Positions 9,924 to 52,500 of a stretch of DNA of 52,644 nt are shown here, piece after piece. Under the pieces are notes generated by a model. The model searched no databases, was not told the origin of the DNA, and worked only from the letters and a program-made list of their open reading frames with translations. This stretch comes from an uncultured Candidatus Saccharibacteria bacterium. Lineage in GTDB: Bacteria > Patescibacteriota > WWE3 > 2-01-FULL-39-13 > JAACPI01. The stretch spans positions 1-52,644 of the forward strand of contig CAYSYH010000001.1 of assembly GCA_964435455.1 (NCBI GenBank), in the 5' to 3' direction. Position numbers and translations under genes: made by a program. Position 1 is the stretch's first letter. Every line of letters begins with the position of its first letter.

Positions 9924-11915
9924 TTAATTATCTTTAATATTAAAAAAATCTCTAGTAAAATAATTTTGGCTATATTTTTTTAATTTTTCTTTATCATTAT
10001 ATATTGTATTGGCAATTTTAGCAGCTGTCTTTATTAGTTTTTTGTTTGAGAAACTTACAAATTTTAAATCAATCTCTCCCGATTGGCGTATTCCAAAAAA
10101 TTCTCCTCCTCCTCTTTCTTCTAAATCCAACAAAGCTAATTTAAATCCATCATTTTCTTTTTCCATGTGTTTTAATCTTTTAACATTTAAAAAGTTATTG
10201 GTAGAAGGTATTAAAAAACAAAAACTTTTTAATTTGCTTCTCCCTACTCTGCCCCTTAATTGATGTAAGCTAGCTAGGCCAAATCTCTCAGCACTTTCTA
10301 TGGCAATAATAGTTGCATCTTTTATATCTATACCAACTTCCACCACTTGTGTAGAAAGTAAAACACCTGATTTTTTACTTTTAAAGTTTTCCAAAATCTT
10401 ATTTTTTTCTTCATCCTTCATCTTTCCGTGTAGCACTGTAATAAAGTTTTCTCCCAACTTTTTTTTAAGTATTGGTTCCATTTCTTCAATTGATTTAACA
10501 TTTTCAAAATTAGGTATTAAACTCTTTTTTATAAAAGGAACTATGTAATATGCTTTTACACCCTTTTTCAATTCTTCCTTTAGCCATTGTAAAAAATCGT
10601 CTTTTCTTTTTTTGCTTAAAACTTTTGTAATTATTTTTTTTCTTCCTTTTGGTTTTGTTTTAATTTGGCATAATTCTAATTCATCAAAATAAGTAAGGGC
10701 TAAGGAACGTGGTATAGGTGTAGCTGTCATAGTTAATACGTGTGGTGGATTTTTTGCTTCTATAATTTTTGCTCTCTGTTTTACTCCAAATTTATGTTGC
10801 TCATCTATAATCACAAAATTAATTTTTTCAGATATATTTGGAATATTAAACAATGCATGTGTTCCTATTAATATATCCCATTTATTGGTTTTTGGCTTTT
10901 CAAAGGCTGTGGCTATTTCTATGTTTATAGTTTTTCCTAAATATTTTTTAAATTCTTTGTATATTTGTTTTGCTAATACTACTGTTGGTGCTAAGTATAA
11001 TACTTTCCCTTTATTTTTAACTACTGTGTGGCTTGCCGATATTGCTACAATAGTTTTTCCACTTCCCACATCTCCACTTAGTAGTATATTCATAGGAACA
11101 TTTGTTTTTAACTGCTTTACTATGGTATTAATGGATTTTTTTTGGTCTTTGGTGAGTTTAAAGGGTATTTTGTTTTCAAATATTTTATGGAAGTCCTTAC
11201 TAATTTTAAAATTAGTAGATAGTTCCTGTTGTAGCTTTTTTTGTTTTATTGAATGTAATTTTATATGTATAACCTCATTTAAAGCAATTCTATCTCTAGC
11301 CTTTTCTACTTGTTCTATATTTTCGGGGAAGTGTAAGCATTTATAAGCCTCTTTTAAACTTAAATAATTATTTAATTCATTGTTTTCTAAAAAATCCTCA
11401 ATTTCTATATTTTCTAAAGCCTCTAACATTAATTTTCGTAAGGTTTTCATTGATAAAAAATTTATATTAAAGTACACTGGAACAATTCTTCCTGAATGTA
11501 TGGTAGTTTCTCCAGATACCTCAATTTGAGGGTTAACTATATTTAACTTACTCCCAAATCTAGTAACTTTACCTGTTAGCATATAATCTTTATTATCTTT
11601 TATTTGGTTTAAAATATATGTAGTGTTAAACCAAAGTATTTCTATGCTTCCTTCATTATCGGTAAATATGGCGCGTACCATTTGTTTCCCATACTTGGTC
11701 CTAAATAGTTTTATTTTTTTAAACCTTCCTTTTAATACTACCTTAATATTTTCTTCTATATTGGAGGTGTTTGTTATTTTACTTAAATCCTCGTATCTAA
11801 AGGGAAAATAATTTATCAGATCACCTATAGTTTTAATATTCTCACGTTTTAAGTTTTTTTCTATTCTCTCCCCTACTCCTTTTAAAATATTTATTGGATC
11901 TGTAGGGTAATACAT
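9924..11915 (-). CDS. recG: ATP-dependent DNA helicase RecG
   Basis: Walker A GDVGSGKT, DEQHKFG (DEQH box), MTATPIPR, QLRGRVGR, plus an N-terminal wedge/OB region. Start placed at the ATG at 11915 because the longer ORF runs into the tRNA. Confidence 0.9.
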   Translation of the reverse strand: MYYPTDPINILKGVGERIEKNLKRENIKTIGDLINYFPFRYEDLSKITNTSNIEENIKVVLKGRFKKIKLFRTKYGKQMVRAIFTDNEGSIEILWFNTTYILNQIKDNKDYMLTGKVTRFGSKLNIVNPQIEVSGETTIHSGRIVPVYFNINFLSMKTLRKLMLEALENIEIEDFLENNELNNYLSLKEAYKCLHFPENIEQVEKARDRIALNEVIHIKLHSIKQKKLQQELSTNFKISKDFHKIFENKIPFKLTKDQKKSINTIVKQLKTNVPMNILLSGDVGSGKTIVAISASHTVVKNKGKVLYLAPTVVLAKQIYKEFKKYLGKTINIEIATAFEKPKTNKWDILIGTHALFNIPNISEKINFVIIDEQHKFGVKQRAKIIEAKNPPHVLTMTATPIPRSLALTYFDELELCQIKTKPKGRKKIITKVLSKKRKDDFLQWLKEELKKGVKAYYIVPFIKKSLIPNFENVKSIEEMEPILKKKLGENFITVLHGKMKDEEKNKILENFKSKKSGVLLSTQVVEVGIDIKDATIIAIESAERFGLASLHQLRGRVGRSKLKSFCFLIPSTNNFLNVKRLKHMEKENDGFKLALLDLEERGGGEFFGIRQSGEIDLKFVSFSNKKLIKTAAKIANTIYNDKEKLKKYSQNYFTRDFFNIKDN

Positions 11916-11927
11916 ATGTTTAAAAAA

Positions 11928-12003
11928 TGGTCCTGGGGGCCGGACTCGAACCAGCAACCAATGGTTTTACAGACCACTGCTCTACCAATTGAGCTACCCC
12001 AGG
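11928..12003 (-). tRNA. tRNA-Tyr (anticodon GUA), class I with 5-nt variable loop, C1:G72, A73, encoded CCA
   Basis: Hand fold of the minus strand: CCTGGGG TA GCTC AATTGGTA GAGC A GTGGT CTGTAAA ACCAT TGGTT GCTGG TTCGAGT CCGGC CCCCAGG A CCA. All four stems pair. Confidence 0.9.
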
Positions 12004-12047
12004 TTTTAATAACTTAAATTATATAAGGTTATTATAATAAATTCCAG

Positions 12048-12149
12048 CTATAAAATATAAGGAAGTATTGACAATGCTATCATTGCCAAAGACCCTAGTG
12101 ATAATACTATAATTGTAAGTTTTCTGTGTTTTCTAAAAAAAGTTAACAT
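12048..12149 (-). CDS. Possible 33-aa single-TM micro-protein between tyrS and tRNA-Tyr
   Basis: My translation gives MLTFFRKHRKLTIIVLSLGSLAMIALSILPYIL. The ATG lies 3 nt after the tyrS stop. No homology evidence. Confidence 0.25.
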   Translation of the reverse strand: MLTFFRKHRKLTIIVLSLGSLAMIALSILPYIL

Positions 12150-12152
12150 ATA

Positions 12153-13289
12153 TTACCGTGTAATTTTTAACTTATCCATAGCTTCTTTTATCTTTTTTGG
12201 TTCTTTTTTGCTAAAGTGCTCTCTAACTGGTTCTAGCAATTTTATTACTTCTTGTGCTACAGCATTTTTTAAATCCATAGGGTGTAATTTTTTGTTTTCA
12301 AAGTCTTTTTTAAGTGTATCAAAGTTTTCATAAACTACATTTCCTCCATATATATCTTTTCTTTTTATTTTTAATTTGAAATTTTTAATTTGTTTAAAAA
12401 ACAAATGGTTTACCCAATCTATTATTGGATTAAACTCTATTTCTCCCTCGGGGCAAAAAGCTTTTTTTATCTTATCTTTTATTTCCTCTGGTGTATCTGT
12501 TACAAATATTGCACTACCTGGTTTAGATTTGCTCATTTTTAAACTAGCCCATAATTCTCTAATGCTTGTCTTTTTGTCTATTGGCCATTTTGGAGGAGGT
12601 GTTAACCCTAAAAGCAAGTGATGGTGTAAAGCTATTGGTTTTAGTTTTTTATTATTTAAAATTAAAGGATTTACCTTAATTTTTAAAGCTGTATCTCTAG
12701 CTATAACGTGTGCTTTACGTTGGTCCATTCCTGCATGGGCAAAATGAGCATTTAAAGCAAATATATCATCCACTTGCATTATAGGATAAATTAGCTTTGC
12801 AAAATCAATACTTTCTCCCTCGCTTCTTCCTAGTATATCTATGCTTCTTTTTACTCTTGAAAGATTTACATTTTTAGCTATGTCTATTAAGTTTTCCCAA
12901 AAAGTGTCATTATTGTGGTATAACTGAGAGCCTGTTACAAATTTTGTTTGAGATGGGTTGGCACCCACAGCTTTTAATACTGCTTTAAAAGCTTCTATAA
13001 AGTAAGGAATTCCTATATCTCTTATGTTAGTCTTATTTCCTCCCAATTTATCGTTAATAATAGTATGCCAATCTGCTAAAAAAATTGTTGTATTAATACC
13101 TGCTTTTTGCAAATCTCTAATTTTATATGCTGTCATAAAACCGCTCCCTATGTGTAGCTTTCCTGATATTTCAAAACCTATATAATGATTTATAGATGTA
13201 TTCGATTTTAATATTTCTTTAATTTCTTCTTTGCCAATTACTTCATCTAAATTTTGTGTAATTATCTTTACTTTTTCTTCAATATTCAT
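12153..13289 (-). CDS. tyrS: Tyrosyl-tRNA synthetase, archaeal/eukaryal type
   Basis: IGFEISGKLHIGS (HIGH region), IYPIMQVDDI, KMSKS, AFCPEGEIEFNPI and LHPMDLKNAVAQEVIKLLEPVR closely track archaeal TyrRS as I recall it from M. jannaschii. The ATG at 13289 is preferred over the TTG at 13298. Confidence 0.85.
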   Translation of the reverse strand: MNIEEKVKIITQNLDEVIGKEEIKEILKSNTSINHYIGFEISGKLHIGSGFMTAYKIRDLQKAGINTTIFLADWHTIINDKLGGNKTNIRDIGIPYFIEAFKAVLKAVGANPSQTKFVTGSQLYHNNDTFWENLIDIAKNVNLSRVKRSIDILGRSEGESIDFAKLIYPIMQVDDIFALNAHFAHAGMDQRKAHVIARDTALKIKVNPLILNNKKLKPIALHHHLLLGLTPPPKWPIDKKTSIRELWASLKMSKSKPGSAIFVTDTPEEIKDKIKKAFCPEGEIEFNPIIDWVNHLFFKQIKNFKLKIKRKDIYGGNVVYENFDTLKKDFENKKLHPMDLKNAVAQEVIKLLEPVREHFSKKEPKKIKEAMDKLKITR

Positions 13290-13314
13290 AATGTACAAAT
13301 TTTATCATTTAAAC

Positions 13315-13593
13315 TTAGTTTTGGGTATACCTTGCTAATTGCCTGCCAAAAAAGATTCCCAAGCCAATTAAAAAGCATAATAAGACTGGTAACCGATCTG
13401 TATTAATAACGGATTCTAATAAAAATAAACTTGTGTACAAAGTATCTGTTTTATTCTCTACTTCTTCTTTTTCTTCTTTGCTTTTTAGTAATGAACCAGT
13501 ATAGCCAAAAGCAATTGAGCATACAGTTAATAGTGTTAATAGTATAACAAATTCCCCTTGGCTAGTTACAACTTCAACCAGCTCGTTATTCAT
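13315..13593 (-). CDS. Small membrane protein (family with 34683-34979 and 35059-35337)
   Basis: Two or three hydrophobic helices. N-terminal TSQGEFVILL and C-terminal LIGLGIFFGRQLAR resemble the 35059-35337 product. Confidence 0.5.
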   Translation of the reverse strand: MNNELVEVVTSQGEFVILLTLLTVCSIAFGYTGSLLKSKEEKEEVENKTDTLYTSLFLLESVINTDRLPVLLCFLIGLGIFFGRQLARYTQN

Positions 13594-13606
13594 AATTAAA
13601 TTTTAA

Positions 13607-14971
13607 TTAACCATCAATTCCTGGTATATATTTTTTACCATTAATATTAATAGGCTTTAGCCTTTTATATGGTATTTTTATTGGTTTTGGTTTTACCGGT
13701 ATTGGCTTACCTATAAATTTGCCCGTAACTCTAAGTTTTAAAAACTTTATATCTACTCCCCCTTTAGAATCAGTTACTACTACCTTTAATGTGTATAGAG
13801 CATTAAGTTTTGAGTTTTTTACTGCTCCCTTAATTGTTGTTGTGGCTCTTCCTTTGTAATTAGATGTTTTTGTAGCGTATAATCCTTTTGGTAATCCATG
13901 TACTTTTATATTCATCATGTCTCCATCTTTATCTCTTGCTTCTATAACTTCTTTATATGGTGCATATAGTACTGCATCCTTTAATCTACTTGTAATTATA
14001 ATAGGTTTTTTGTTAATTTGCTTTTTAGTTGGTACTATCATTGGGCTGTGGCTAAAAAAACCATATTGTAAATAATTATACTTTTTGGTGGTAAAAGAAC
14101 ATTCTTTTGGATTTTTGGTTGAGTATGCTATAAAAGAACCGCCATTTGGCAATACTGAATTAAAAGTTCTATGTAAATATGGCTTAAATCTAAAATCTTG
14201 CTTTTCACCACAAACTACTTTTAGTAATTCTTTATTTTGATTATGCCCTCTAACCCATTTAATTTTATAGCTTACATTCTTAAAATCTCTCAAGCTAGAT
14301 GTTCTCCAGTCGTTTGTTATGTAATGTACTCTAGTTAATTTATAAACCCCCCAGTTTTTTGGTACACCACCTTTAAACAATGGTGTTGCTAATAGAATAA
14401 CTGTGTTTTTATTACCAGTATAATCAAATCTTATTTCTAGGTTATTTCCTGGTGCACTCAGTATTAAATTTTTACCTTTTACAATTATATTTTCTTTGTA
14501 ACAGCTTGTACCTACCAAAATAGGTTTGGGATTATTTTTCATTTTCTTATATATAGTAAAGCACCCTGTGGGATCTAATTTTATTTCTTTATCTGCTTTG
14601 TAGTAACCAAAACTACTTGTTTTTATTAGTTTTGCATGAAAATATTTAGGAGGTATATTAGGGTTTGGTTTAGCTTCTCCAACAGGGGAATAAAATACGC
14701 CAAAATACTGGGGTTTAATATTATTTTGTTTATCAACTATTCTTAAATCAGCATATACTATTTTAGTTTTAGTATCCAGCCTTATGTAATATAAAAAATC
14801 ATAAGTATAAATTTCTCCAGTTATCCAATCAGGAGAATTTGAATAATCATAATTTTTAACAAGCTTTTGGTAATAGTTACTAGCTTGTATTTTAGCTGTA
14901 TTAAAAAAAACTGTAGTCAAAAAAATTAATAAGGTTGAAGTAGTTATTTTTAAAAGTTTTTTAGCTTTCAT
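13607..14971 (-). CDS. Secreted protein with C-terminal cadherin-like/putative Ig domain
   Basis: Signal peptide MKAKKLLKITTSTLLIFLTTVFFNTAKIQA. The C-terminal segment APYKEVIEARDKDGDMMNIKVHGLPKGL...YTLKVVVTDSKGG looks like a dystroglycan-type cadherin-like domain. Confidence 0.6.
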   Translation of the reverse strand: MKAKKLLKITTSTLLIFLTTVFFNTAKIQASNYYQKLVKNYDYSNSPDWITGEIYTYDFLYYIRLDTKTKIVYADLRIVDKQNNIKPQYFGVFYSPVGEAKPNPNIPPKYFHAKLIKTSSFGYYKADKEIKLDPTGCFTIYKKMKNNPKPILVGTSCYKENIIVKGKNLILSAPGNNLEIRFDYTGNKNTVILLATPLFKGGVPKNWGVYKLTRVHYITNDWRTSSLRDFKNVSYKIKWVRGHNQNKELLKVVCGEKQDFRFKPYLHRTFNSVLPNGGSFIAYSTKNPKECSFTTKKYNYLQYGFFSHSPMIVPTKKQINKKPIIITSRLKDAVLYAPYKEVIEARDKDGDMMNIKVHGLPKGLYATKTSNYKGRATTTIKGAVKNSKLNALYTLKVVVTDSKGGVDIKFLKLRVTGKFIGKPIPVKPKPIKIPYKRLKPININGKKYIPGIDG

Positions 14972-17383: not shown

Positions 17384-19345
17384 TTATTTATTAGGTCTAT
17401 CTACAGGTTTTTTTAATACTGATTCTATATAGTTAATTACACTATTTCTTATCTCTGTCATTTCATTGGCTGTTAAGTTTCTTTTTGGGTTTTGGTAATA
17501 AATTGTTATTGTTAAAGCTCTATTTTTACCTTTGTTATAATCATCTTTTATTTCCACTTTAGTTATATATTTATTTGCTCTACTAATTTTATTTATAATA
17601 TCTCCAGCTAAGTCATCTAAATTTATATGTATTGTTAAATCTTCTTTAATTATTGCATATGGAGGGTTAAACCTTATAGTAGGATAGCTTTTGTATGCTT
17701 TAACTAAGTGCTTGTACCTAATTTGGGCATATGTGTATTTAGGCTTAACTGTTATAAATCCACATTTTTTATTATTAATGTATATATTTATTTGTCTTTT
17801 GTTAGGGTATTTAAAGGTGTAGTTGTCTATATTTAATACTTTAAATAAGTTTTTAAGTATATCTTTAATTTTATATATTCCTTCATTTCCCGAACTAAGT
17901 AATGCGAGGTATTCCTTTTCGGTAGGAAGCTTTTTGTTGTTCTTTAAATATATTTTTCCTACTTCATAAATATTTATTTCTTTATATTTTTTATTTAACT
18001 CTAGCGTTTGGTTTAAACTTGGTTCCAAACTTGTGCGTATATAAGACATCTCTTTACCTAAAGGATTAATTATTTTAACTGCCTTTTTTAAGTCAACATA
18101 TTTTTTTGGTACCATTGTATAAGTTATAACTTCATTAAAACCAGCATTACTTAGGTACATTTTTGTAAGCCTTTCTACTGTAGGTTTTTTGCTAAACTGT
18201 TCTTTTTTATAAAAATTAGGAGGTAATTTTAAATCAATTTTTTCGTACCCATAAATTCTAATTACCTCTTCTATTAAGTCTTCTTCTATAGATACATCTT
18301 GTTCTCTAAAACTAGGAACTTTTACCGTTATAAAATTTTTACCTTGTTTTATAATCTCAAATTGTAAAGCTTTTAATATGTTTTTAACTATTTGCTTTTC
18401 TATTTTCTGATTGGCATATAAGTAAAGTTTTTGGTAGGTTAACGTTACTAAACTGTTTTTAGGTTTTATAGTATTTATATCATACAGCTTGCTAGCTATT
18501 TTAAAATTAGTTTGTTGTTTCAATAATTTTAAAGATCTTAGTAATGCTTTTGGTGGTAACTCTCTGTCTATGGATTTTTCAAACCTTAAAGCAGCTTCTG
18601 TCCTATGATTTAATTTTAAGCTTGTTTTTCTTATTTTTTTAGGATCATATATTTGCGTAAATAAAACTACTCTTTTGGTGTCCGGTTTTATCTGTGAATT
18701 AGCTCCTCCCATAATTCCACATAAATCTATAATTTTTTCACTATCTTCTATAACTATAGAACCTTTGGGTAATACTCTTTTTGCTCCATCTAATGTAATA
18801 ATACTTTCTCCTTCTTTAGATTCTCTTACTTTCATTACAGAACCTTTTATACTATCGTAGTCAAACGCATGCATAGGTTGTCCTGTTTCTATCATTATGT
18901 AATTTGTTAAATCCACTATATTATTTATAGGCCTTATTCCTACTTGCTTTAACCTTTGTTTAATAATTTGGGGAGATTCTTTAATAGTTATGTTTTCTAT
19001 TACACATGCTGTGAAACGTGGTGACAGTTTAGGATTCTCAATTTGTACCTTTAATAAATCTTTATTTGCAAAGTTTTCTGTATATACATCTTTTAATGGG
19101 TTATTAAAAATTACCTTTTGCTTTTCAGCCTTTAAAATAGCTGTTAATTCTCTTGCTATTCCTAAAATAGACAAATTGTCTCCCCTATTTGGTGTTATCT
19201 CTATATCTAACACAAAATCACCCTCTATATTTTTTATATACTCTACGCTGGAACTTCGCAATGTAAGTAAGTTGGCAATATCGCTGATATTTTTATTTGT
19301 TTTTACTATTTCTTTTAACCAATTTTGAGGTACTAGTATATTCAT
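17384..19345 (-). CDS. pheT: Phenylalanyl-tRNA synthetase beta subunit
   Basis: MNILVPQNWLKE start, B3/4 and B5 regions, a C-terminal anticodon-binding-like domain. Directly downstream of pheS. Confidence 0.9.
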   Translation of the reverse strand: MNILVPQNWLKEIVKTNKNISDIANLLTLRSSSVEYIKNIEGDFVLDIEITPNRGDNLSILGIARELTAILKAEKQKVIFNNPLKDVYTENFANKDLLKVQIENPKLSPRFTACVIENITIKESPQIIKQRLKQVGIRPINNIVDLTNYIMIETGQPMHAFDYDSIKGSVMKVRESKEGESIITLDGAKRVLPKGSIVIEDSEKIIDLCGIMGGANSQIKPDTKRVVLFTQIYDPKKIRKTSLKLNHRTEAALRFEKSIDRELPPKALLRSLKLLKQQTNFKIASKLYDINTIKPKNSLVTLTYQKLYLYANQKIEKQIVKNILKALQFEIIKQGKNFITVKVPSFREQDVSIEEDLIEEVIRIYGYEKIDLKLPPNFYKKEQFSKKPTVERLTKMYLSNAGFNEVITYTMVPKKYVDLKKAVKIINPLGKEMSYIRTSLEPSLNQTLELNKKYKEINIYEVGKIYLKNNKKLPTEKEYLALLSSGNEGIYKIKDILKNLFKVLNIDNYTFKYPNKRQINIYINNKKCGFITVKPKYTYAQIRYKHLVKAYKSYPTIRFNPPYAIIKEDLTIHINLDDLAGDIINKISRANKYITKVEIKDDYNKGKNRALTITIYYQNPKRNLTANEMTEIRNSVINYIESVLKKPVDRPNK

Positions 19346-19347
19346 AT

Positions 19348-20346
19348 TTAAAATTTATTTAAAAAGTCTAAATTAGGTGTATAAAACATTCTAATATCGG
19401 GTATATTAATATCTCCCTTCATCATATAAGGCCTTTCTACACCAAAGCCAAATGCAAATCCATTATATACTTTTGTATCTATGCCTACATTCCTTAATAC
19501 ATTAGGGTGTACCATCCCTGCTCCTCCTATTTCTAACCAACCTGCCTTACATAACTTGCATCCTTTCCCCTTACATTTATTGCACGAAACATCTACCTCA
19601 AAACTAGGTTCTGTAAATCTAAAGTGGTAAGGCCTTATTCGGGTAGTTCTATTTATACCTAAAAATCCTTTAATAAAGTAATCTAATGTTCCTTTTAAAT
19701 GAGCTATAGTAACGCTTTTATCTATATATAAACCTTCAAATTGATAAAACATTGGAGAGTGTTTAGGACTTGCTTGCCTTCTATAACATTTGGCTATGTT
19801 AAGCATTTTTATAGGAGGTTTATTTTTTTCCATTTCTCTAATTTGTCCACTTGAGGTATGGGGGGTTAAAATATATCCTCCCTCTATAAAAAATGTTTCC
19901 CATTCATCTCTTGCTGGATGGTCTTTAGGCATATTTAAGGCTTCAAAAGGGTGCCAATCATCTTCTGTCTCTCTGTAAGTTTTTCTTACAAATCCTATTT
20001 TTCTTAATATATCTTCTATTTGAAATATAGAGTGTGTTGTTGGATGCAAGGAACCTTTTTTAAAAAACTTTTTTTCTAAGGATATATCTAGTGGAGTCTC
20101 CTTTTTATTAATTTTTTGTTCAGCCAAATTTAAAAGTTCTGTTACTCTGCTTTTTAGTTCATTCAACTCTTTACCAAACTTAGGGCGGTCCTTGGGATTA
20201 ATGTTTTTTATTTCTTGGGCTATTTTATTAATTATTCCAGACTTTCCCAAATATTTTAATCTTATGGTTTTTAACCTTTTAACTTGCCCAACTTGTATAT
20301 CTTTTAATTCCTTTTTTAAATTAATAATAACCTCTTTTTTATTCAT
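19348..20346 (-). CDS. pheS: Phenylalanyl-tRNA synthetase alpha subunit
   Basis: HPARDEWETFF, FRFTEPSFEVDVSCNKCKGKGCKLCK and GGAGMVHPNVL class II motifs. Confidence 0.95.
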   Translation of the reverse strand: MNKKEVIINLKKELKDIQVGQVKRLKTIRLKYLGKSGIINKIAQEIKNINPKDRPKFGKELNELKSRVTELLNLAEQKINKKETPLDISLEKKFFKKGSLHPTTHSIFQIEDILRKIGFVRKTYRETEDDWHPFEALNMPKDHPARDEWETFFIEGGYILTPHTSSGQIREMEKNKPPIKMLNIAKCYRRQASPKHSPMFYQFEGLYIDKSVTIAHLKGTLDYFIKGFLGINRTTRIRPYHFRFTEPSFEVDVSCNKCKGKGCKLCKAGWLEIGGAGMVHPNVLRNVGIDTKVYNGFAFGFGVERPYMMKGDINIPDIRMFYTPNLDFLNKF

Positions 20347-20380
20347 TAATCTTATTATAACTTATACACTTATAAATTAA

Positions 20381-20407
20381 AAAAGGCAGCTTTTAAAGCT
20401 GCCTTTT
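20381..20407 (-). terminator. Rho-independent terminator after rplT (perfect 13-nt arms, bidirectional shape)
   Basis: AAAAGGCAGCTTT T AAAGCTGCCTTTT. The GGCAGC/GCTGCC core is followed by a T run on the minus strand, 23 nt after the rplT stop. Confidence 0.55.
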
Positions 20408-20429
20408 AGGTGGTTAAAAAAATGTTTAT

Positions 20430-20777
20430 TTACTTAATCACCTTTTTAACCACCTGTTTAAATGTTTCAAAATCGTTAAAGGCTAATTCAGCTAAACTTT
20501 TTCTGTTTAGTTGTATTTTTGATTTATTAAGGTTTTGTATAAATTTATTGTATTTTACCTCTAAATTGTTTAAACCTGCATTTATTCTTACAATCCAAAG
20601 CCTTCTCATTTGCCTTTTTCTTTCTTTTCTACCTCTAAATGCATGCTCACCTGATCTTATAAAGGCTTCGTGTGCTATACGATATAGCTTTCCTCTAGCT
20701 CCCCAAAAACCTTTATTGGCTTTTAAGATTTTTTTATGTCTTTTTCTCCTTGTAAAACCTGTTTTTACTCTTGGCAT
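20430..20777 (-). CDS. rplT: 50S ribosomal protein L20
   Basis: MPRVKTGFTRRKRHKKILK...GFWGARGKLYR is a canonical L20. Confidence 0.95.
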   Translation of the reverse strand: MPRVKTGFTRRKRHKKILKANKGFWGARGKLYRIAHEAFIRSGEHAFRGRKERKRQMRRLWIVRINAGLNNLEVKYNKFIQNLNKSKIQLNRKSLAELAFNDFETFKQVVKKVIK

Positions 20778-20778
20778 A

Positions 20779-20973
20779 TTACATTCCCAATAATTTTTTT
20801 ATTTTTTTAATATATCCTTTAGTATTTATTTGTGTAAATCTTTTTTGTTTAAATTTTTTAGATACATCTACTTTTGCCTTTAAATGACTAGCATTTACCT
20901 TCCCTTTTAAAAGTTTTCCTTTTTTAGATTTTTTTATTCTTTTTGCTGTTCCTTTATGTGTTTTCATTTTCAT
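20779..20973 (-). CDS. rpmI: 50S ribosomal protein L35
   Basis: MKMKTHKGTAKRIK, 64 aa. Stop lies 1 nt before the rplT ATG. Confidence 0.9.
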   Translation of the reverse strand: MKMKTHKGTAKRIKKSKKGKLLKGKVNASHLKAKVDVSKKFKQKRFTQINTKGYIKKIKKLLGM

Positions 20974-21064
20974 ACATTAATATTTTACTTATATTAATTA
21001 CTTTGTAAAGCAATAGATATTTATAATTATGGATTAATTTGTTTTTTAATTTTTCTAATCAATA

Positions 21065-21325
21065 TTATTTAGTTTTTATATATTCTCCTAATAGTTTTCC
21101 TATTCCTATACCTAGTAACATAGCTACTATGCCTGTTATTAATAATCCTTCTGGTGAATTAGATAAAACCTCTACAGCTTTTTGGGCCACCTGTGGAAGC
21201 GGCTCCTGTAAAGGGTTTTTATTGAAAAAATCAACCATCCCCTCCCCTATTTGTGTGGCAAATTCTATTACTCTATTTAGTATTCCAGGGCCGTTTTGAT
21301 TTAATGACTCTAATGTTAAAAACAT
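21065..21325 (-). CDS. 86-aa protein with C-terminal glycine-zipper TM helix, inserted between infC and rpmI
   Basis: Same strand as the operon with an ATG start. C-terminal GLLITGIVAMLLGIGIGKLLG helix. The antisense ORF 21039-21299 looks non-protein-like. Confidence 0.5.
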   Translation of the reverse strand: MFLTLESLNQNGPGILNRVIEFATQIGEGMVDFFNKNPLQEPLPQVAQKAVEVLSNSPEGLLITGIVAMLLGIGIGKLLGEYIKTK

Positions 21326-21382
21326 ATTTAAATTTTAAAATCCCCTTTATAAATTGTCAATAGCTATATATTATAGGTTACC

Positions 21383-21919
21383 CTATTTAGGTATAAGTGT
21401 TACCACTAAACTACGCCCTTGTTTTTTAATGCTATCTTCTGCTTTTGCTATATCCTCTAATTCTTTTAATATTTGGTTTAGCCTATCGTACCCCAGTTCT
21501 GGATGCACTATTTCTCTACCTTTAAAACGTAATGTAAACCTAACTTTGTCTTTATTCTCTAAAAATTGTCTAGCTCTTTTTAAACGTATATCTAAGTCGT
21601 GAGGGCTTATATTAACGCTAACTCTAAACTCTTTGAGTTTTTGTTTTTTAGATTTAACTTTAGCTTTGTGTTCTTTTTGTTGTTCCTGATATTTAAACTT
21701 GTTCAGCTCAATTATTTTACATACTGGTGGGGTTGCTTTTTCTGCAATTAGTATCAAATCTTTTTCTTGTTCTTTGGCAATTTTTAAAGCTTGTGTTGTA
21801 TCCATTATCCCCAGGTTGCCTTGCTCCGAAACCACTCTAACTTTAGGGAATTTTATATATTCATTATATACATATCTTTTTTGTTTAAACTTCTTTTTTT
21901 TGTTTTTATAGTGAGCCAT
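21383..21919 (-). CDS. infC: Translation initiation factor IF-3
   Basis: NEYIKFPKVRVV..G..LGIM...AL..A......LILIAEKATPPVCKI plus a C-domain. ATG start with a basic N-terminal extension. Confidence 0.9.
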   Translation of the reverse strand: MAHYKNKKKKFKQKRYVYNEYIKFPKVRVVSEQGNLGIMDTTQALKIAKEQEKDLILIAEKATPPVCKIIELNKFKYQEQQKEHKAKVKSKKQKLKEFRVSVNISPHDLDIRLKRARQFLENKDKVRFTLRFKGREIVHPELGYDRLNQILKELEDIAKAEDSIKKQGRSLVVTLIPK

Positions 21920-21945
21920 AAATTTATTATTTTTAATTTATTACT

Positions 21946-23715
21946 TTATAGTTCCATGGATTTTTTATCTATAAGCGGGGTAATCTTATTAATAAACTCA
22001 TTAATTCTTATGTTATTTATTTGGTTTCCTTGCCTTGTTCTTACACTTACAGTTTTTTCCTGTTCTTCTTTTTCACCTACTATTAACATATAGGGTACTT
22101 TTTGTTCTTGAGCTCTTTTAATCTTTTTACTTACTGTTTCGTTTTTATCATCAAGTTCTATTCTAAAATCTTTTTCTATTAGTTCCTTATAAATACTTTT
22201 TGCATAATTTAAGCTTTTATCTGAAACAGGTATTACTATAACTTGTATTGGGGAAAGCCATACAGGAAAGTTCCCCTCTAAATGCTCAATTAATATGCCT
22301 AAAAATCTCTCAATTGATCCCATAATTGCAGCATGTAACATTACAACTTCTTCCTTTTCCCCCTTTTCATTTATACAATATAACCCAAATCTATTTGGCA
22401 TGTTTCTATCTAATTGAATAGTAGCTACTTGCCATTCTCTCCCTAAAGAATCTGTTGCTATAAAATCCAATTTTGGTCCATAAAAAGCTGCCTCTCCCGG
22501 TGCTTCATAGTATTCTATACCTTTTTCTTTTGCTATTAATCTTATTTCTTGCTCGGTTTTTTTCCAAAGATAAGCATCTCCTAAATATTCTTGTGGCTTT
22601 TTTGGATCGTGAAAACTAAGCCTAACTTTTATTGGTAAATTAAAAGGTTTGTAAAAGTTTTGTATAATATCCCAAATTATTTCAATTTCTTGTTTTACTT
22701 GATTGTTCCTACAAAACACGTGGGCATCATCTTGAGTTATACTTATGACCCTACTTAAACCCGATAGCTCTCCTGTTTGCTCGTCTCTATAAACCATAGT
22801 AGTGTTGGCATATCTTTGGGGCATTTCTCTATAGCTATGTTCTTTGCGCGCAAATATTTGTGTGTGGTGTGGGCAATTCATGGGCTTTAAAACAAAAGTT
22901 TTACCCTCTCTTGTTTTTATTTTAAATAATTCATCTGCAAATTTTTTCCAATGCCCGCTGGTTTTGTATAAATTTTTTTTTTTTATATGAGGTATTTCTA
23001 CTCTCTTATATCCTTTTTGTTTTCTTAAATCCCATACAAAATTGTCCAACAAAATCCTTACCATTGCTCCTTTTGGAGGCCATAATGGTATCCCTGGTCC
23101 AACTTTTTCTGAAAAAGTAAATAAATCTAATTGTTTCCCTAATTTTTTGTGGTCTCTTCTTTTTGCTTCTTCTAATAATTCTAAATATTTTTTTAAGTCC
23201 TCTTTATTTTTAAATGCTGTTCCATAAATTCTTGTAAGCATTTTGTTTTTTTCATCCCCCTTCCAATAAGCTCCAGCTATTTTTAATAGTTTAAACGCTC
23301 CAATTTTACCCAGTTCTTTTACGTGTGGGCCTTTACAAAGGTCTATAAATTCTCCAACTGTGTATAAACTTACTTGATTTTTCTTTCCAAAATCATCTCT
23401 TTTGCCTTGTTTTATTTCATCAATAATTTCTAATTTATATGGCTCTTCTTTAAATATTTTTTTTGCTTCTTCTACTGTTACCCAACTTTGTTTAAATTTT
23501 ATATTCTCCTTTTTAATTTTTTGCATTTGTTCTTCTATATTTTTTAAATCTTTTTCCCCAATAGTCTGGGTTCCAAAATCAAAATCATAATAAAAGCCAT
23601 TATCTATTACCGGACCTATAGCTATTTTAACTTTTGGATATAATTTTTTAACAGCGTATGCTAATAAATGTGCTGTAGAATGTCTGATTTTAAATAATTC
23701 CTTATCTTGTTCCAT
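21946..23715 (-). CDS. thrS: Threonyl-tRNA synthetase lacking the N-terminal TGS domain
   Basis: Begins at the editing-domain HSTAH motif (IRHSTAHLLAYAV...GPVIDNGFYYDFD). Class II core with HRA-type motifs and an anticodon-binding C-terminus. Confidence 0.9.
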   Translation of the reverse strand: MEQDKELFKIRHSTAHLLAYAVKKLYPKVKIAIGPVIDNGFYYDFDFGTQTIGEKDLKNIEEQMQKIKKENIKFKQSWVTVEEAKKIFKEEPYKLEIIDEIKQGKRDDFGKKNQVSLYTVGEFIDLCKGPHVKELGKIGAFKLLKIAGAYWKGDEKNKMLTRIYGTAFKNKEDLKKYLELLEEAKRRDHKKLGKQLDLFTFSEKVGPGIPLWPPKGAMVRILLDNFVWDLRKQKGYKRVEIPHIKKKNLYKTSGHWKKFADELFKIKTREGKTFVLKPMNCPHHTQIFARKEHSYREMPQRYANTTMVYRDEQTGELSGLSRVISITQDDAHVFCRNNQVKQEIEIIWDIIQNFYKPFNLPIKVRLSFHDPKKPQEYLGDAYLWKKTEQEIRLIAKEKGIEYYEAPGEAAFYGPKLDFIATDSLGREWQVATIQLDRNMPNRFGLYCINEKGEKEEVVMLHAAIMGSIERFLGILIEHLEGNFPVWLSPIQVIVIPVSDKSLNYAKSIYKELIEKDFRIELDDKNETVSKKIKRAQEQKVPYMLIVGEKEEQEKTVSVRTRQGNQINNIRINEFINKITPLIDKKSMEL

Positions 23716-47305: not shown

Positions 47306-48077
47306 AGTAATGTAAAAAATTTATCTAAGGTTAAAAATGTTAATCCCTTTTATTTGTTAAGAGTTGGAGATTTACACCCTGCACATACCACTAAATATAA
47401 AGATGTTAAAAATAATAAATTGATATATAAAGACCCTACTTTATGGGAAGATTTAATTATAAAAATATTAATAAGTTTAAATTATTCTTTAAATTACTTT
47501 CCTTTTAAAATTAAGTATAGTAAGTCTTTTAAAGTTAGGGATTATTTACAAGCTAATCAAGAAACAAAAAACAAAAAACCTACCTATTTTAAACGGGAAA
47601 ATTATAAAACCAATAGAATATAAAAAATATTTAATAGCTGGGTTTAAAAAAGGCTCAAAGCATATTTTAAAGCACAAATTAGATTTATTACATATAGTAA
47701 CAAATTATAAAAGTCAGTACAGAGTTATATTAAGACCTACAATTATGTATAGAATTCCTTTTATTAAATATCAATTTCCACAAATATTTAATAAAAATAA
47801 AAATCCACAAAAATTTGTTTATAAAGAGTTAAAAAACTTTAAATTACAGCACAAGCTATCAAATACTAAAGGGTTGATTCAAAATGAATCTAAGTTTGTA
47901 AGCAAAGGAATAATACCTACATATTATGCCAATTTACATACAACAAACATATATACAAGCAATGGAGATATAGTTGCTAATTTAGCCCAAAAGCCCTTAA
48001 AAACCTTTACTAGCCATATTAAAACATTACCTACATTACTAAATAATTCTTTAAAAACATTACAAAGCTACAAGTAA
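47306..48077 (+). pseudogene. Degenerate, frame-shifted ORF pair without ATG start; possible remnant of a recombinase-like gene
   Basis: One frame is open over 47306-47623. A second frame is open over 47493-48077 and overlaps it across poly-A runs (47561-47580). Only a TTG start is available. LLRVGDL and HILKH resemble tyrosine-recombinase box I and II only weakly. Confidence 0.25.
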
Positions 48078-48130
48078 CCTTTTTAAATTTTATATAAACT
48101 AATTACATAGGGGTAATACTAGTATTTATT

Positions 48131-48205
48131 TGGAGCGGGTAAGGGGAGTTGAACCCCTATTTCCGCCATGGCAAGGCGGTGTAATAGCCGTTATACGATA
48201 CCCGC
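48131..48205 (-). tRNA. tRNA-Gly (anticodon GCC), encoded CCA
   Basis: Anticodon arm CCGCC TTGCCAT GGCGG, T arm AGGGG TTCAACT CCCCT, and the same acceptor stem as the UCC isoacceptor. Confidence 0.9.
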
Positions 48206-48281
48206 AAAAGTCTATAAAAGATTTTATTATAGTTTTGTTTAAAAATAAAGTATATTTTGGTAAAATAATCATTGCTAAAGG

Positions 48282-48357
48282 GCGCCCGTAGCTCAGAGGC
48301 TAGAGCAGTTCCCTTCTAAGGAAAAGGTCGTAGGTTCGAATCCTACCGGGCGCGCCA
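48282..48357 (+). tRNA. tRNA-Arg (anticodon UCU), encoded CCA
   Basis: GCGCCCG TA GCTC AGAGGCTA GAGC A GTTCC CTTCTAA GGAAA AGGTC GTAGG TTCGAAT CCTAC CGGGCGC G CCA. Confidence 0.9.
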
Positions 48358-48376
48358 TTAAAATATTTTATTTTAT

Positions 48377-48453
48377 CGGGGTTTGGCGCAGTTGGCTAGC
48401 GCGCTGCGTTTGGGACGCAGAGGTCACAGGTTCAAGTCCTGTAACCCCGACCA
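48377..48453 (+). tRNA. tRNA-Pro (anticodon UGG), encoded CCA
   Basis: CGGGGTT TG GCGC AGTTGGCTA GCGC G CTGCG TTTGGGA CGCAG AGGTC ACAGG TTCAAGT CCTGT AACCCCG A CCA. Confidence 0.9.
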
Positions 48454-48468
48454 TTTGAATAATCTTTT

Positions 48469-49470
48469 TTAATTTACCTTTTTGCTATACCAAATATCTA
48501 ACCCCAAACTTTTGTCGTCTCTTTTAAATAATTGTGCAAATACCATTTCTGTACCATCTGCGGTTATAGATACTTCTGCCACACCTACTGGGTGTGTTAT
48601 AAACTTAACGGGTTTGCTCCATTTTGTACCTTGTTCATTTTGCCTTGTAGTTTTGTAAATTGCCAAAGTCCCCCCACTGCGGTCTGAGGTAAAGTACAAG
48701 GTGTTGCAATCATCGGTAAGAAAGGGCTGAAAATCCGACACAGAATTTTTATTTTTAGCATTTATAGGGTACGGGGCTAGTTCTACCTTGCCCTTAAAAT
48801 TACTTGCTGTTGCGTTTTTCATAACGCATATATTTTGATCATTTGGGCAATCAAACCATGCTTCGTCTCTTTGCTCGCACAGGTGAATGTTTCCCTCGTC
48901 TTTTCCGGTGCCAAAATCAAGCCGTACATTGTTTTTGTACACAGTAACAGGTACATCTTTTTGTTGTACAAAAGATTCTTTTGTAGAGTTATAGTAAAGA
49001 TCCCCTGCAAGGGATATATACGGTGCAGTTTGTGTAGTAGGGTATTTTTTATTTTTAGATATAGGGTGTACACTTTTAGTTTTAAATGGTTTATTGCTGT
49101 AATAAATCTTTCCATCAATACCTTTTTTTATAGCCTCTTGGGGTTTGTATACAACGTAGTTTGTTATTTGCTCTGTAATTTTTGGGTCTAGTAAATTAGG
49201 GTAAGGGTGATAAAAAAATAAAATTTTACTCCCATCTCGGGTAATATAGGGCGAATCCTCCCACCCTGCGTCATTAAACTCAAGCTTAACAGGGGTTTGC
49301 CAGCCTTTTTGGTGTATAGTAGCTGGTATTAGTTTAGTATCATCATCTTTGTATTTAGGTATATCTGCAGGCTTTTGCGGCTCATCAGAACTTAAAACCG
49401 CAATAACTAAAAAAATAACTAAGCCAATTAAAAAAAACTTAAAACTAAAAAATCTTTTAACAAAAACCAT
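48469..49470 (-). CDS. Membrane-anchored PD40 (TolB-like) beta-propeller repeat protein
   Basis: N-terminal TM (FFSFKFFLIGLVIFLVIAVL). Repeats of the PD40 type are present (PYITRDGSKILFFY, PYISLAGDLYYNS, PFLTDDCNTLYFTSDRSGGTLAIY, VSITADGTEMVFA). The ATG at 49470 is preferred over the TTG at 49539. Confidence 0.65.
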   Translation of the reverse strand: MVFVKRFFSFKFFLIGLVIFLVIAVLSSDEPQKPADIPKYKDDDTKLIPATIHQKGWQTPVKLEFNDAGWEDSPYITRDGSKILFFYHPYPNLLDPKITEQITNYVVYKPQEAIKKGIDGKIYYSNKPFKTKSVHPISKNKKYPTTQTAPYISLAGDLYYNSTKESFVQQKDVPVTVYKNNVRLDFGTGKDEGNIHLCEQRDEAWFDCPNDQNICVMKNATASNFKGKVELAPYPINAKNKNSVSDFQPFLTDDCNTLYFTSDRSGGTLAIYKTTRQNEQGTKWSKPVKFITHPVGVAEVSITADGTEMVFAQLFKRDDKSLGLDIWYSKKVN

Positions 49471-49522
49471 TAATTTTTTATAAACCTTATTTAACTTATT
49501 ATAACAAGGTTTTAGTAATATA

Positions 49523-52500
49523 TTAATTTGCAATAACAAAACTATCTGCCAAAAGCTCCCCCTGCTTTAAAACTCGGTCGGCCTCTATCCGCGCCAAGTC
49601 CGGCGGGTAACCATATTTCATCAGAAGTTTTTTGACCGTCACGCGCAACTTGGCACGCACATCAGAGCGCCTTTCCCAGTCCACCGTTGCGTTTCTGCGG
49701 ATTGTCTCCACGATAAGATGAATCAACTCTCGCATCACCTCATCTTGCAAAAAAGTGGTTGATTGATTTTCTTTTAAAATAGTATAAAAAGCATATTCCT
49801 CCTCCGTCAGCCCTAATTCTTTAGCTTTGCCATCTTCCAGCTTCATCTCGCGAGCAATGTTTGACAGTTCCTCAATCACCTGCGCCGTGGTGATTTGGTT
49901 GTTGTGATACTTGCGCACAACTTCCTCCAGCATTTCCGAAAACTTTTTTGACTGTGTCAGATTTTTTCGTTTACGCACTTTCAATTCATCAGAGAGCAAC
50001 TTTCTCAAAAGTTCAAAAGCCAAGTTTTTTTGCTCCATATTTTTCACTTCCAGCAAAAACTCCTCTGACAAAATATCCAAAGAAGGATTATCTACGCCCG
50101 CGGCCTGAAAAATATCAATCACCCCGTCGGCAGACAATGCTTCATCCACAATTTGCCTCACCGCTGTTTGCACCTGCGCATCAGTTCTCATTCCGCCGGT
50201 ACCAAACTTGGCAATCCGCGCTTTAACAGCTTGGAAAAATGCCATTTTTTCACGGATCATCTCCGCTTCAGCGCTTGGAGTTGCCATAGCAAAAAGTTTA
50301 GAGAGCTTGCCTACTTCCGAGACAAAACGCTTTTTCACATCTTCATCGCGCAAAACAAAATCCTCCGCATCCAGCAAAATCTGCAACTTCTCTTTGGTGT
50401 CCACTTGAAAATATTTTTCATAATCAAAGCTGGCAAACATCTGCTCCACCACCTCAAACTTCTCTCGCATGCCGGCAATCACTTCCGCCATATCATTCAC
50501 CGCCTCCCCTTTGCCGCCACTTTCGGTATAAACCGCCATAGCGTTTTTCAAATCCTGCCCAATGCCGATGTAGTCAACAATCAATCCGCCCGGCTTGTCG
50601 CGATACACTCTGTTGACCCGCGCAATCGCCTGCATCAAATTTGCCCCTTGCATCCTCTTGTCAATATACATTGTATGCAGTGGTGGCACGTCAAAACCGG
50701 TCAACCACATGGACTGCACAATCACCAAATCCAACTCATCATTGATATCCTTAAAGCGCGCCGCCAGTTTGGAGCGGTCGCTCTTGTTGGTGTGGTGCGG
50801 TTGAAATTTTGCCGGGTCATCACTACTGCTTGTCATAACCACCTTGATTTTCCCTTTCATCAAGTCATCACTATGCCAAGCTGGACGCAAAGCAACAATC
50901 TGCTGATACAAATCAACCGCAATTTCTCGCGTCATCGCCACAATCATTCCTTTACCGGCAAAAACTTCTTGCCTTGCTTCAAAATGACTGACAATATCCT
51001 GCGCCATTTCTCGCAAACGCTCCGGTGCGCCCACCACTGCCGAAATTTGTGCCACTTTTTTCTTGGCTTTTTCTAATTGCTCCGGCAAGGCATTGGAAAT
51101 TGCAGAAATTTCCTCATCTATTTTCTCTCCTGTCTGCTCATCAAATTTTACTTTGATTAAACGCGCTTCATAGGAAATCGGCACCGTTGCTCCGTCATCC
51201 ACCGCCTGCTTGATATCATAGACATCAATATATTCTCCAAAAACTTTTTTGGTGTTGCGGTCGCCCAACTCAACCGGTGTTCCGGTAAAGCCGATGAAAG
51301 AAGCGTTGGGCAAGGCATCGCGCAAATGCTTGGCGTTGCCGTAGCGAGTTTCCACGCCATCTGCCGTCTCCACCTCTCGCGCCCTAAAACCATACTGACT
51401 GCGGTGCGCCTCATCGGCAATTACCACCACATTTTTCCTCTCGGTCAAAGCATCAAACTGCCCGCCATCTTCCGGATAAAATTTTTGAATGGTGGTAAAA
51501 ATAATGCCTCCACCTGAAACGCGTAGTAATTCTTTCAGCTCTGCCCGACTTTTGGCTTGTTTTGGCTTCTCTCGCAACAGCGAAGTACAGTTTCCAAAAG
51601 TGGCAAAGAGTTGGTCGTCCAAATCATTTCTATCGGTCAAAATCACCAAAGTGGGATTTTTCATTTTTGGATGTACCATCAACTGCCCGGCATAAAAAAC
51701 CATAGACAATGATTTTCCGCTCCCCTGCGTATGCCAAATCACACCCACCTTGTGGTCGCTTTCAATAGCGCGCAAAGTTTCTTTTACTGATTTTTCCACC
51801 GCGTAAAACTGATGATAAGCCGCCACCTTTTTAACAATCACCTGCTTAATAATTCCCGTCTTGTCATCTTTTACCTCCTCACGCTCAAAGACCGTATTAA
51901 AACGAATCAAACGCAAAAGTACATCTTTTTTCATCATCTCCTCCGCCATCACCTGCAACTCCGGCTCTCGTCCTTTTTGCCTTTCCTTTGGTCTTTTCCA
52001 TGCTAAAAATCGCGAAAACGGCGCCGACAAAGACGACACTCGCGCCTCCGCTCCGTCTCCAATCACACATAAGGCGTTGTAGTAAAAAATGCTCGGCACC
52101 GCCTCTTTGTAATTTTGAATTTGAGTGTAAGCTTTTTCCAAAGTGGCATTTTCATCTTCTGGATTTTTCAACTCCACCAAAACCAATGGCAAGCCATTGA
52201 CAAACAGCACCACATCGGGGATTTTATGATTGTTATTTTCTTTTATCTCAAACTGATTTACCACCCAGAAAGAATTGTTTTCTACATTTTCCAAATCAAT
52301 CAATTTCACCAATTCATTTTTTGTCTCTCCGTCTGCAAAATACTCAACCGTGATGCCGTCGGTCAGCATTTTGTGGAATTTTTCATTGTTTGCCATCACG
52401 TCGCTTCCGCCCAAATTCAAAATCTTTACCATCGCCTCAGCGCGTGCCGACTCCGGCACATTGGGATTGATGCGACGCAAAGACTCGCGCAACTCTTTTT

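Follow-up and report, generated by a model that had tools for sequence, protein, structure and literature searches.

The 52,644-nucleotide (nt) contig CAYSYH010000001.1, analyzed here over its full length and referred to as the window, carries tyrS, coding for a tyrosyl-tRNA synthetase (TyrRS), at a distance of 149 nt from a gene for tRNA-Tyr on the same strand. The locus is arranged in the order tyrS, a 33-codon micro-open reading frame (micro-ORF), tRNA-Tyr, and recG (Table 1). Gaps of 3, 44, and 12 nt separate the tyrS stop codon from the micro-ORF ATG (12149), the micro-ORF stop codon (12048) from the 5' end of the tRNA (12003), and the 3' end of the tRNA (11928) from the recG ATG (11915), exactly as claimed in the original prediction, an earlier reading of the same DNA. 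Counted from an upstream TTG, the tyrS ORF spans 12153..13298 of the minus strand, with its TAA stop codon at 12153-12155. Translation most likely starts at the ATG at 13289, consistent with a database gene call of 378 amino acids (aa) (P0001; 100% match).

Table 1. Features of the tyrS locus and their positions in the window
Feature	Position	Strand	Evidence
tyrS, archaeal-type (Thermococcus/DPANN-like) tyrosyl-tRNA synthetase, 378 aa	12153..13289	minus	NF006330, 2cyc, PF00579, tree
Conserved 33-codon micro-ORF, MLTFFRKHRKLTIIVLSLGSLAMIALSILPYIL	12048..12149	minus	ORF kept in L001 and L003
Conserved AT-rich 44-nt spacer before the tRNA	12004..12047	minus	Near-identical in L001 and L003
tRNA-Tyr(GUA), 76 nt, class I	11928..12003	minus	ARAGORN; Rfam, 71.3 bits
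recG, bacterial ATP-dependent DNA helicase	9924..11915	minus	Pfam RecG_wedge, DEAD, Helicase_C; NCBIfam RecG models

The tyrS product was compared with family models, solved structures, and homologous sequences. Among the NCBIfam models, the archaeal-type TyrRS model NF006330 (PRK08560) gave 417.7 bits (cut-off, 220), whereas the bacterial tyrS model TIGR00234 and the trpS model TIGR00233 gave 110.8 and 93.4 bits, under their cut-offs of 113.8 and 176.75, respectively. The closest solved structures were 2cyc (E value, 3e-125), 7fg6, and 2cya, with an end-to-end alignment to the 375-aa chain 2cyc_A, and the bacterial TyrRS structure 1h3e was matched with an E value of 9e-5 only. Pfam reported PF00579, the catalytic W/Y domain, alone on the tyrS ORF (residues 32-356 of 381) and did not find the S4-like C-terminal domain, the part of bacterial TyrRS that binds the long variable arm. 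The blocks YIGFEISGKLHIG, IYPIMQVDDI, KMSKS, KKAFCPEGEIEFNPI, and LHPMDLKNAVAQEVIKLLEPVR are present in the translation, both class I motifs are intact (the HIGH-type HIGS in SGKLHIGSG and KMSKS in LKMSKSKPG), and all 90+ columns invariant across an alignment of 32 homologues are kept. The nearest non-self relatives belonged to Nanoarchaeota, Woesearchaeota, and Pacearchaeota at 54-57% identity; the best archaeal identity was 57%, with no close archaeal donor. In a neighbour-joining tree, the window enzyme formed a separate, long-branch clade among archaeal sequences together with its counterparts on the comparison contigs L001 and L003 (100% bootstrap). These results identify the window enzyme as an archaeal/eukaryal-type TyrRS that is neither a bacterial TyrS/TyrZ nor a tryptophanyl-tRNA synthetase (TrpRS); the earlier claim of archaeal type over the full length, unlike bacterial TyrS, was thereby borne out, as were the sequence blocks quoted in its support.

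The tRNA matched the whole 71-position Rfam tRNA model as a full cloverleaf (E value, 1e-13), with no long variable arm. A single-strand minimum-free-energy fold with a non-cloverleaf minimum was set aside in favor of this covariance-model match. Its acceptor stem, CCUGGGG/CCCCAGG, gives a C1:G72 first pair, followed by A73 and an encoded CCA. The anticodon (gta) lies at position 34, the variable loop comprises 5 nt (UGGUU), and the D arm, with a stem of 4 bp, is a normal class I arm and not a truncated class II arm. Further features are A37, the Levitt pair A15:U48, and the T arm GCUGG-UUCGAGU-CCGGC. Read from its sequence, the tRNA holds the archaeal identity set (class I, C1:G72, A73, and GUA), and ARAGORN, Rfam, and inspection all agreed with the length, anticodon, TGGTT variable loop, first pair, and A73 noted originally. 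Work by Kobayashi et al. in 2003 reportedly established that archaeal TyrRS recognizes C1:G72, A73, and the anticodon. Judged by its family membership, the window enzyme would activate tyrosine and charge the class I tRNA-Tyr via these elements, and the absence of the S4-like domain is in keeping with the lack of a long arm in that tRNA.

Bacterial genes in the window include those for a class A penicillin-binding protein (PBP1A), PilM, the alpha and beta subunits of a bacterial-type phenylalanyl-tRNA synthetase (PheRS), threonyl-tRNA synthetase (ThrRS), and RecG. The best named relatives of ThrRS and RecG fell in the Patescibacteria group, WWE3, Wolfebacteria, and Parcubacteria. By its gene content and these relatives, the host is identified as a Patescibacteria (candidate phyla radiation [CPR]) bacterium, in keeping with the bacterial housekeeping context originally described. 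The genes for PheRS beta, PheRS alpha, and ThrRS (17384-23715, minus strand), all of bacterial type, lie at most 10 kb from the archaeal-type tyrS, and in the region holding them, the Tyr system alone has switched type. The window is AT-rich, with a GC content of ~0.28 overall, 0.289 in the interval 12001-14000 holding tyrS, and 0.24-0.31 over most of its length; the composition profile displayed no GC shift at the tyrS region. Within the 52.6 kb, a single tRNA-Tyr was detected, and the tyrS product is the only class Ic synthetase.

Two independent metagenome assemblies, L001 (from a hydrothermal vent) and L003, exhibited the same gene order as the window: He_PIG protein, small ORF, tyrS, micro-ORF, tRNA, and recG. 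The survey of relatives suggested earlier thus revealed conserved tyrS-tRNA-Tyr linkage in both. Their TyrRS is 78% identical to that of the window at the protein level and 76% at the nucleotide level, while the tRNA-Tyr is identical in all three at 76/76 positions. Since the same arrangement occurs in two independent assemblies with a TyrRS only 78% identical, the locus is not an assembly artefact or chimera. Codon differences in tyrS comprised 112 synonymous versus 85 nonsynonymous changes. These comparisons indicate that the tyrS locus is under purifying selection and, because its base composition matches the window and gene order is kept at 78% identity, that it is inherited vertically in the window lineage.

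To place this linkage, one genome per GTDB species was scanned with a 32-sequence TyrRS alignment, which yielded 80 loci, 70 of them archaeal (DPANN, Asgard, and Thermococci) and 10 bacterial by record title. Locus length had a median of 8.5 kb (≥8 kb in 42 of the 70 archaeal loci), and any tRNA-Tyr within ~4 kb detected by intron-aware ARAGORN was counted. In the fetched flanks, a tRNA-Tyr near tyrS was observed in none of the 70 archaeal loci. In contrast, 8 of the 10 bacterial-labelled loci had one 17-120 nt upstream of tyrS (Fisher p = 1.6e-9, with the bacterial loci forming only ~5 clades). All eight linked bacterial tRNAs have C1:G72 and A73. Those of L018, L066, L042, and L080 combine a persisting long variable arm with a class II D arm; in those of L049, L065, L070, and L076, the variable arm was lost and a class-II-type 3-bp D stem (GCAGAGCGGUUGAUGC) was kept. 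Since one or the other class II feature is retained, these eight tRNAs are, on sequence features, clearly of bacterial descent. The bacterial enzymes fell into at least six separate groups among the archaeal TyrRS sequences in the neighbour-joining tree. Given the 0/70 archaeal versus 8/10 bacterial linked loci, the tyrS-tRNA linkage looks like a recurrent bacterial feature and not an imported archaeal gene order. Selection would keep two mutually dependent, host-incompatible genes side by side in bacteria, and their proximity may make replacement or further transfer of the pair viable.

Some of the surveyed loci were unusual in their own right. By title labels only, archaeal-type TyrRS occurred in bins outside the CPR, namely, L080 (Omnitrophota), L042 ("bacterium"; 582-kb contig), L083 (Dormibacteraeota; 314-kb contig, GC content of 0.70), and L076 (Aggregatilineales; 4.2-kb contig), and in L042, L080, and L076, a C1:G72/A73 tRNA-Tyr lies directly upstream of tyrS. 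In one Patescibacteria clade, tyrS resides inside a tRNA cluster, (Thr)-Tyr-[tyrS]-Ala/Thr-Thr-Trp (L018, 3900-6574; L049, 3910-5935; L065; L070, 759-2432). Three of these records are titled "Gammaproteobacteria" and group with a Patescibacteria record at 100% bootstrap. The cluster of L018 is followed by a gene for QueH, which belongs to the queuosine pathway, modifying G34 of tRNA-Tyr. Insertion of tyrS into the classical bacterial tRNA cluster ahead of secE-nusG was considered and rejected: Pfam analysis of the flanks of L018, L049, L070, L042, L080, and L076 detected neither secE nor nusG and revealed ribonucleotide reductase, CobA, QueH, prenyl synthases, and GATase instead.

The history of the neighbourhood was addressed with four sister contigs (L208-L211; RecG 55-64% identical to that of the window), which share the synteny PBP1A…recG-rsmD-nusB-rnc-rpsP-KH-trmD-pilO/pilM, in which recG heads a conserved bacterial gene order up to trmD. 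Here, too, tyrS adjoins recG, albeit on the opposite strand. The encoded TyrRS of 362-365 aa, of a different, protist-like subtype with the motif AYDGFEPSG, scores 380-383 bits on NF006330 and shares just 38-41% identity with the window enzyme; the Protein Data Bank (PDB) entries matching it best were 5usf, 3p0h, and 3vgj and not 2cyc. In L209 and L210, a 78-nt class I tRNA-Tyr (C1:G72, A73, CCA, and A37) is located between the PBP1A gene and tyrS. The tyrS of L210 (GCA_018001875.1; 1359-1841, minus strand) is decayed to residues 1-93 and 329-362, with the adjacent C1:G72 tRNA-Tyr intact; a further tyrS is presumably present elsewhere in this genome. A RecG tree supported the family at 100% and had the protist-like subtype on both sub-branches. 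The basal member L212 and the outgroup L213 have neither tyrS nor the tRNA beside recG, and the neighbourhood association is therefore confined to a sub-clade. An attempt to reach tyrS by ThrRS-anchored synteny (contigs L204-L207) was dropped, as gene order was not conserved.

Because the sisters carry the other TyrRS subtype and, where visible, a class I C1:G72 tRNA-Tyr at this site, it is most parsimonious to assume that an archaeal/eukaryal-type Tyr system at the PBP1A-recG interval predates the present tyrS of the window. The ancestral interval would have held an archaeal/eukaryal-type tyrS and a class I C1:G72 tRNA-Tyr, and the window lineage would later have swapped the protist-like TyrRS for the DPANN/Thermococcus-like one. 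The window lineage thus probably replaced an earlier protist-like tyrS and possibly the whole pair.

Overall, we regard it as reasonably probable, if well short of certain, that the locus is a vertically kept Tyr pair following the archaeal rule in a CPR bacterium, that its linkage was made in bacteria, and that the present tyrS replaced one of the protist-like subtype. Several points weigh against this history. Bootstrap values are low at the internal nodes of the RecG tree (35-56%), and the nesting of the window lineage with L208 and L211 is weak, so that the direction of subtype replacement is not secure. The TyrRS trees are neighbour-joining only and do not settle deep relationships or the exact sister group of the window clade. 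Domain labels of the comparison loci were taken from record titles, of which the three reading "Gammaproteobacteria" are probably wrong at the phylum level. The window covers just 52.6 kb of the genome, and a canonical bacterial tyrS with a class II tRNA-Tyr may lie elsewhere. Moreover, the window tRNA differs from that of L209 and L210 in the Levitt pair, the variable loop, and the whole T stem. Being unlike the sister tRNA and resembling the tRNA-Tyr of the contigs L132 and L157, it may have come with the present tyrS and not predated it.

The origin of the tRNA body therefore bears on the competing explanations. The T-arm motif GCUGG-UUCRANU-CCGGC was found in 22 of 95 "Tyr" calls and in 4 ARAGORN "Asn" calls of the sampled loci and in none of ~414 other tRNAs, which makes it specific to archaeal/eukaryal-type tRNA-Tyr in this sample. 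The sample came from a pattern search of metagenomes in which class I tRNA-Tyr were picked by the D arm of the window tRNA and the anticodon only; eukaryotic tRNAs with introns, tRNA arrays, and haloarchaeal tRNAs made up most of the matches, and DPANN sequences were few. A15:U48 combined with GGUUGCYGGUUCRARUCCGGC recurred in the tRNA-Tyr of two contigs that are archaeal as indicated by their flanking genes, L132 (close to two TFB genes) and L157 (1.1 Mb; close to TYW1). Together with the 4-bp D stem, which sets the window tRNA apart from the arm-deleted class II tRNAs of L049, L065, L070, and L076, the match of A15:U48 and the GGUUGCUGGUUCGAGUCCGGC 3' half to these archaeal tRNAs speaks for transfer of a linked tyrS-tRNA-Tyr cassette in one piece from a DPANN-like archaeon, as does the presence of two parts archaeal in kind only 149 nt apart. 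We nevertheless consider such a joint transfer unlikely. Among the archaeal tyrS loci surveyed, not one had a tRNA-Tyr nearby; the branch of the window clade is long and lacks a close archaeal donor; the window tRNA combines A37 with an encoded CCA, while the sampled tRNA-Tyr sharing its A15:U48/T-arm signature, including those of L132 and L157, all have G37 except that of L195; and a class I C1:G72 tRNA-Tyr was already present at this site in the sisters, alongside a different TyrRS. Of the original prediction, the view that the pair is archaeal in kind and physically linked therefore stands, whereas its step from linkage to joint transfer from archaea is not borne out in that form, given the unlinked archaeal loci, the bacterial descent of the linked bacterial tRNAs, and the other TyrRS subtype in the sister lineages. 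A donor within bacteria is a somewhat better prospect, although still a rather unlikely one: a unit of tyrS, micro-ORF, and tRNA-Tyr domesticated in another bacterium would have replaced the older protist-like tyrS along with its tRNA. Linked archaeal-type pairs are common in bacteria of several phyla, the orientation and order of the pair differ between window and sister lineages, and the tyrS remnant of L210 demonstrates turnover of tyrS in the family. Window and sister tRNAs, too, differ across the T arm, variable loop, and Levitt pair, and within either lineage the tRNA hardly varies (window versus L001, 76/76 identical; L209 versus L210, 4 differences). Yet no donor with a tRNA downstream of tyrS or with a close TyrRS was found, the other linked bacterial loci all having the tRNA upstream, and the 58/73 identity between window and sister tRNAs could also reflect divergence in fast-evolving CPR genomes.

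The enzyme alone might also be foreign, with the tRNA remoulded from a resident bacterial class I tRNA such as tRNA-Asn(GUU) by one anticodon change and changes at the acceptor end. The bacterial-type tRNA-Asn of L162 (U1:A72, G73, and a group I intron) has a T arm identical and a D arm near-identical to those of the window tRNA, with 55/73 identities overall, and A37 and the encoded CCA are bacterial-like. This tRNA-Asn has, however, G15:C48 and not A15:U48, and it does not stem from the window lineage, whose own tRNA-Asn lies outside the comparison. Archaeal tRNA-Tyr match the window tRNA at least equally (56-59/73), and we hold a home-made tRNA to be improbable. Overall tRNA identities (58/73 to the sister-lineage tRNA, 56-60/73 to archaeal or unassigned class I tRNA-Tyr) do not discriminate between origins, and the evidence on archaeal descent is mixed both ways. 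Very improbable, finally, is an accessory second pair beside a normal bacterial TyrRS and tRNA-Tyr, or a chimera of archaeal DNA on a bacterial contig. An accessory role has a parallel in the TrpRS-A pairs that, according to Mukai et al. (PMC5370408), coexist with canonical TrpRS, and the examined 52.6 kb would leave room for a second system. All invariant TyrRS residues are kept, however, the pair is under purifying selection judging by the codon differences in tyrS, and CPR genomes with C1-G72 tRNA-Tyr are described in the same text (PMC5370408). What speaks against a chimera is that the junctions are the same in three independent assemblies, that GC content does not shift at tyrS, and that recG begins 12 nt from the tRNA. 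As a separate observation, bacterial-type tRNA-Asn(GUU) of L090, L119, L136, and L162, which matched the tRNA-Tyr search pattern by accident, have anticodon loops interrupted by insertions of ~210-550 nt resembling group I introns, with an ORF in the insertion of L119.

The remaining features of the locus were also conserved. The micro-ORF recurs with 33 codons in L001 (3466-3567) and L003 (3371-3472), and between the window and L001, it has 9 synonymous and 5 nonsynonymous codon differences, all 5 of them conservative. The peptide has a basic N terminus followed by a single hydrophobic helix and matched no Pfam or NCBIfam family; at 33 aa, it would escape most gene callers. It is probably a small membrane peptide cotranscribed with tyrS, the 3-nt spacing suggesting a single transcript for the two, and the analysis yielded no evidence linking the peptide to tyrosine charging. 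Conservation of the following spacer with L001 and L003 reaches to ~10 nt before the tRNA. Within it, the hexamers TGGAAT (12046-12041) and TATAAT (12023-12018), separated by 17 nt and ending 14 nt before the tRNA 5' end, form a possible dedicated tRNA promoter, although an automatic promoter scan gave no excess over chance in so AT-rich a sequence (8 sites versus 10.5 expected). A terminator scan found none. The tRNA, 44 nt beyond the micro-ORF, may thus have a promoter of its own, and recG, whose start lies 12 nt beyond the CCA, is probably cotranscribed with the tRNA by transcription running through it. A longer recG ORF (9924-11957), which begins at a TTG at 11957 and overlaps the tRNA, appears in the mechanical ORF list and was dismissed as a listing artefact, the conserved start being the ATG at 11915 (MYYPTD..., also in L001).

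At the far end of the window, a gene for an HsdR type I restriction R subunit of 1039 aa (49523-52642, minus strand; HSDR_N, SWI2_SNF2, and T1RH-like_C) reaches the contig end. Bins over HsdR (48001-52000) have a GC content of 0.38-0.46, compared to 0.24-0.31 in the rest of the window, and because of this excess, the region is probably recently acquired foreign DNA. Among the related Patescibacteria contigs, an intein or LAGLIDADG insertion was observed in SufB of L204 (1552-5157), and one of the same kind was observed in the ribonucleotide reductase of L049 (25-1743).

Tyr is, with Trp, the classic example of bacterial and archaeal/eukaryal synthetases being unable to charge tRNAs of the other kind, and because of this cross-domain incompatibility, the Methanocaldococcus jannaschii pair has become the workhorse of genetic code expansion. 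Its TyrRS comprises 306 aa, whereas the window enzyme belongs to the longer (~375-aa) 2cyc-like subtype. In the laboratory, according to Iraha et al. 2010 (PMC2887954), an archaeal pair functionally replaced the tyrosine pair of Escherichia coli. That engineered system and the window share one principle: an archaeal-type TyrRS that reads C1:G72 needs its own tRNA to function in a bacterial cell and, with it, can take the place of the native pair; the window would represent a natural, long-established replacement. The occurrence of archaeal-rule Tyr pairs in the CPR is itself already published, which answers the question, left open in the original prediction, of whether it had been documented. 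Mukai, Reynolds, Crnkovic, and Soll 2017 (Life 7:8; PMC5370408) report archaeal/eukaryal-type TyrRS with C1-G72 tRNA-Tyr in CPR phyla, acquired several times independently from archaea, with the TyrRS thought to be DPANN derived. The tRNAs mostly keep the variable arm, an arm-less one being that of "Ca. Roizmanbacteria" GW2011_GWC2_34_23; carriers are reported from the CPR only, and an operon is described only for TrpRS-A and tRNA-Trp. The window resembles these published systems in its CPR host, archaeal-type TyrRS, C1:G72 tRNA-Tyr, and arm-less tRNA, and multiple acquisitions are also apparent in the present tree. What differs is that linkage is conserved here and recurs across bacterial clades and that two TyrRS subtypes occupy one neighbourhood in one family. 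Text searches of that paper returned no statement on tyrS-tRNA-Tyr adjacency, and literature searches for later work on such linkage in the CPR yielded nothing beyond it in the library searched. In the same paper, the Microgenomates operon of TrpRS-A and tRNA-Trp(A73) likewise joins an archaeal-type class Ic synthetase and an archaeal-identity tRNA in the CPR, with an ORF between them. In contrast to the window, with its Tyr pair and an intervening 33-aa predicted membrane peptide, its order is tRNA, ORF1, synthetase, ORF1 coding for a large class-I-aaRS-like protein (aaRS, aminoacyl-tRNA synthetase), and its pair coexists with a canonical bacterial TrpRS.

That bacteria can run on the archaeal rule means that identity sets are not hard-wired to domains, a point already made in 2017. 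To this, our results add that the incompatible parts are usually found side by side in bacteria and not in archaea, and that stages of tRNA adaptation coexist, from a flipped first pair with the arm kept, through loss of the arm with a class II D arm, to a fully class I body. They further suggest that a change in the tRNA rule opens the way for exchanging one archaeal/eukaryal-type TyrRS for another and, by record-title labels, that carriers of archaeal-type TyrRS exist outside the CPR. Such natural pairs are candidate orthogonal pairs that would already function in a bacterial cytoplasm. More tentatively, as a possibility that we do not hold to be the probable one, the archaeal-type TyrRS and C1:G72 tRNA-Tyr may constitute a self-sufficient linked module in bacteria, a "natural orthogonal pair" that would arise repeatedly, spread between phyla (CPR, Omnitrophota, Dormibacterota, and Chloroflexota-like bins), and displace others of its kind, a DPANN-like unit having here replaced a protist-like pair in the PBP1A-recG interval. 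If true, this would amount to serial whole-pair replacement of an essential decoding system.

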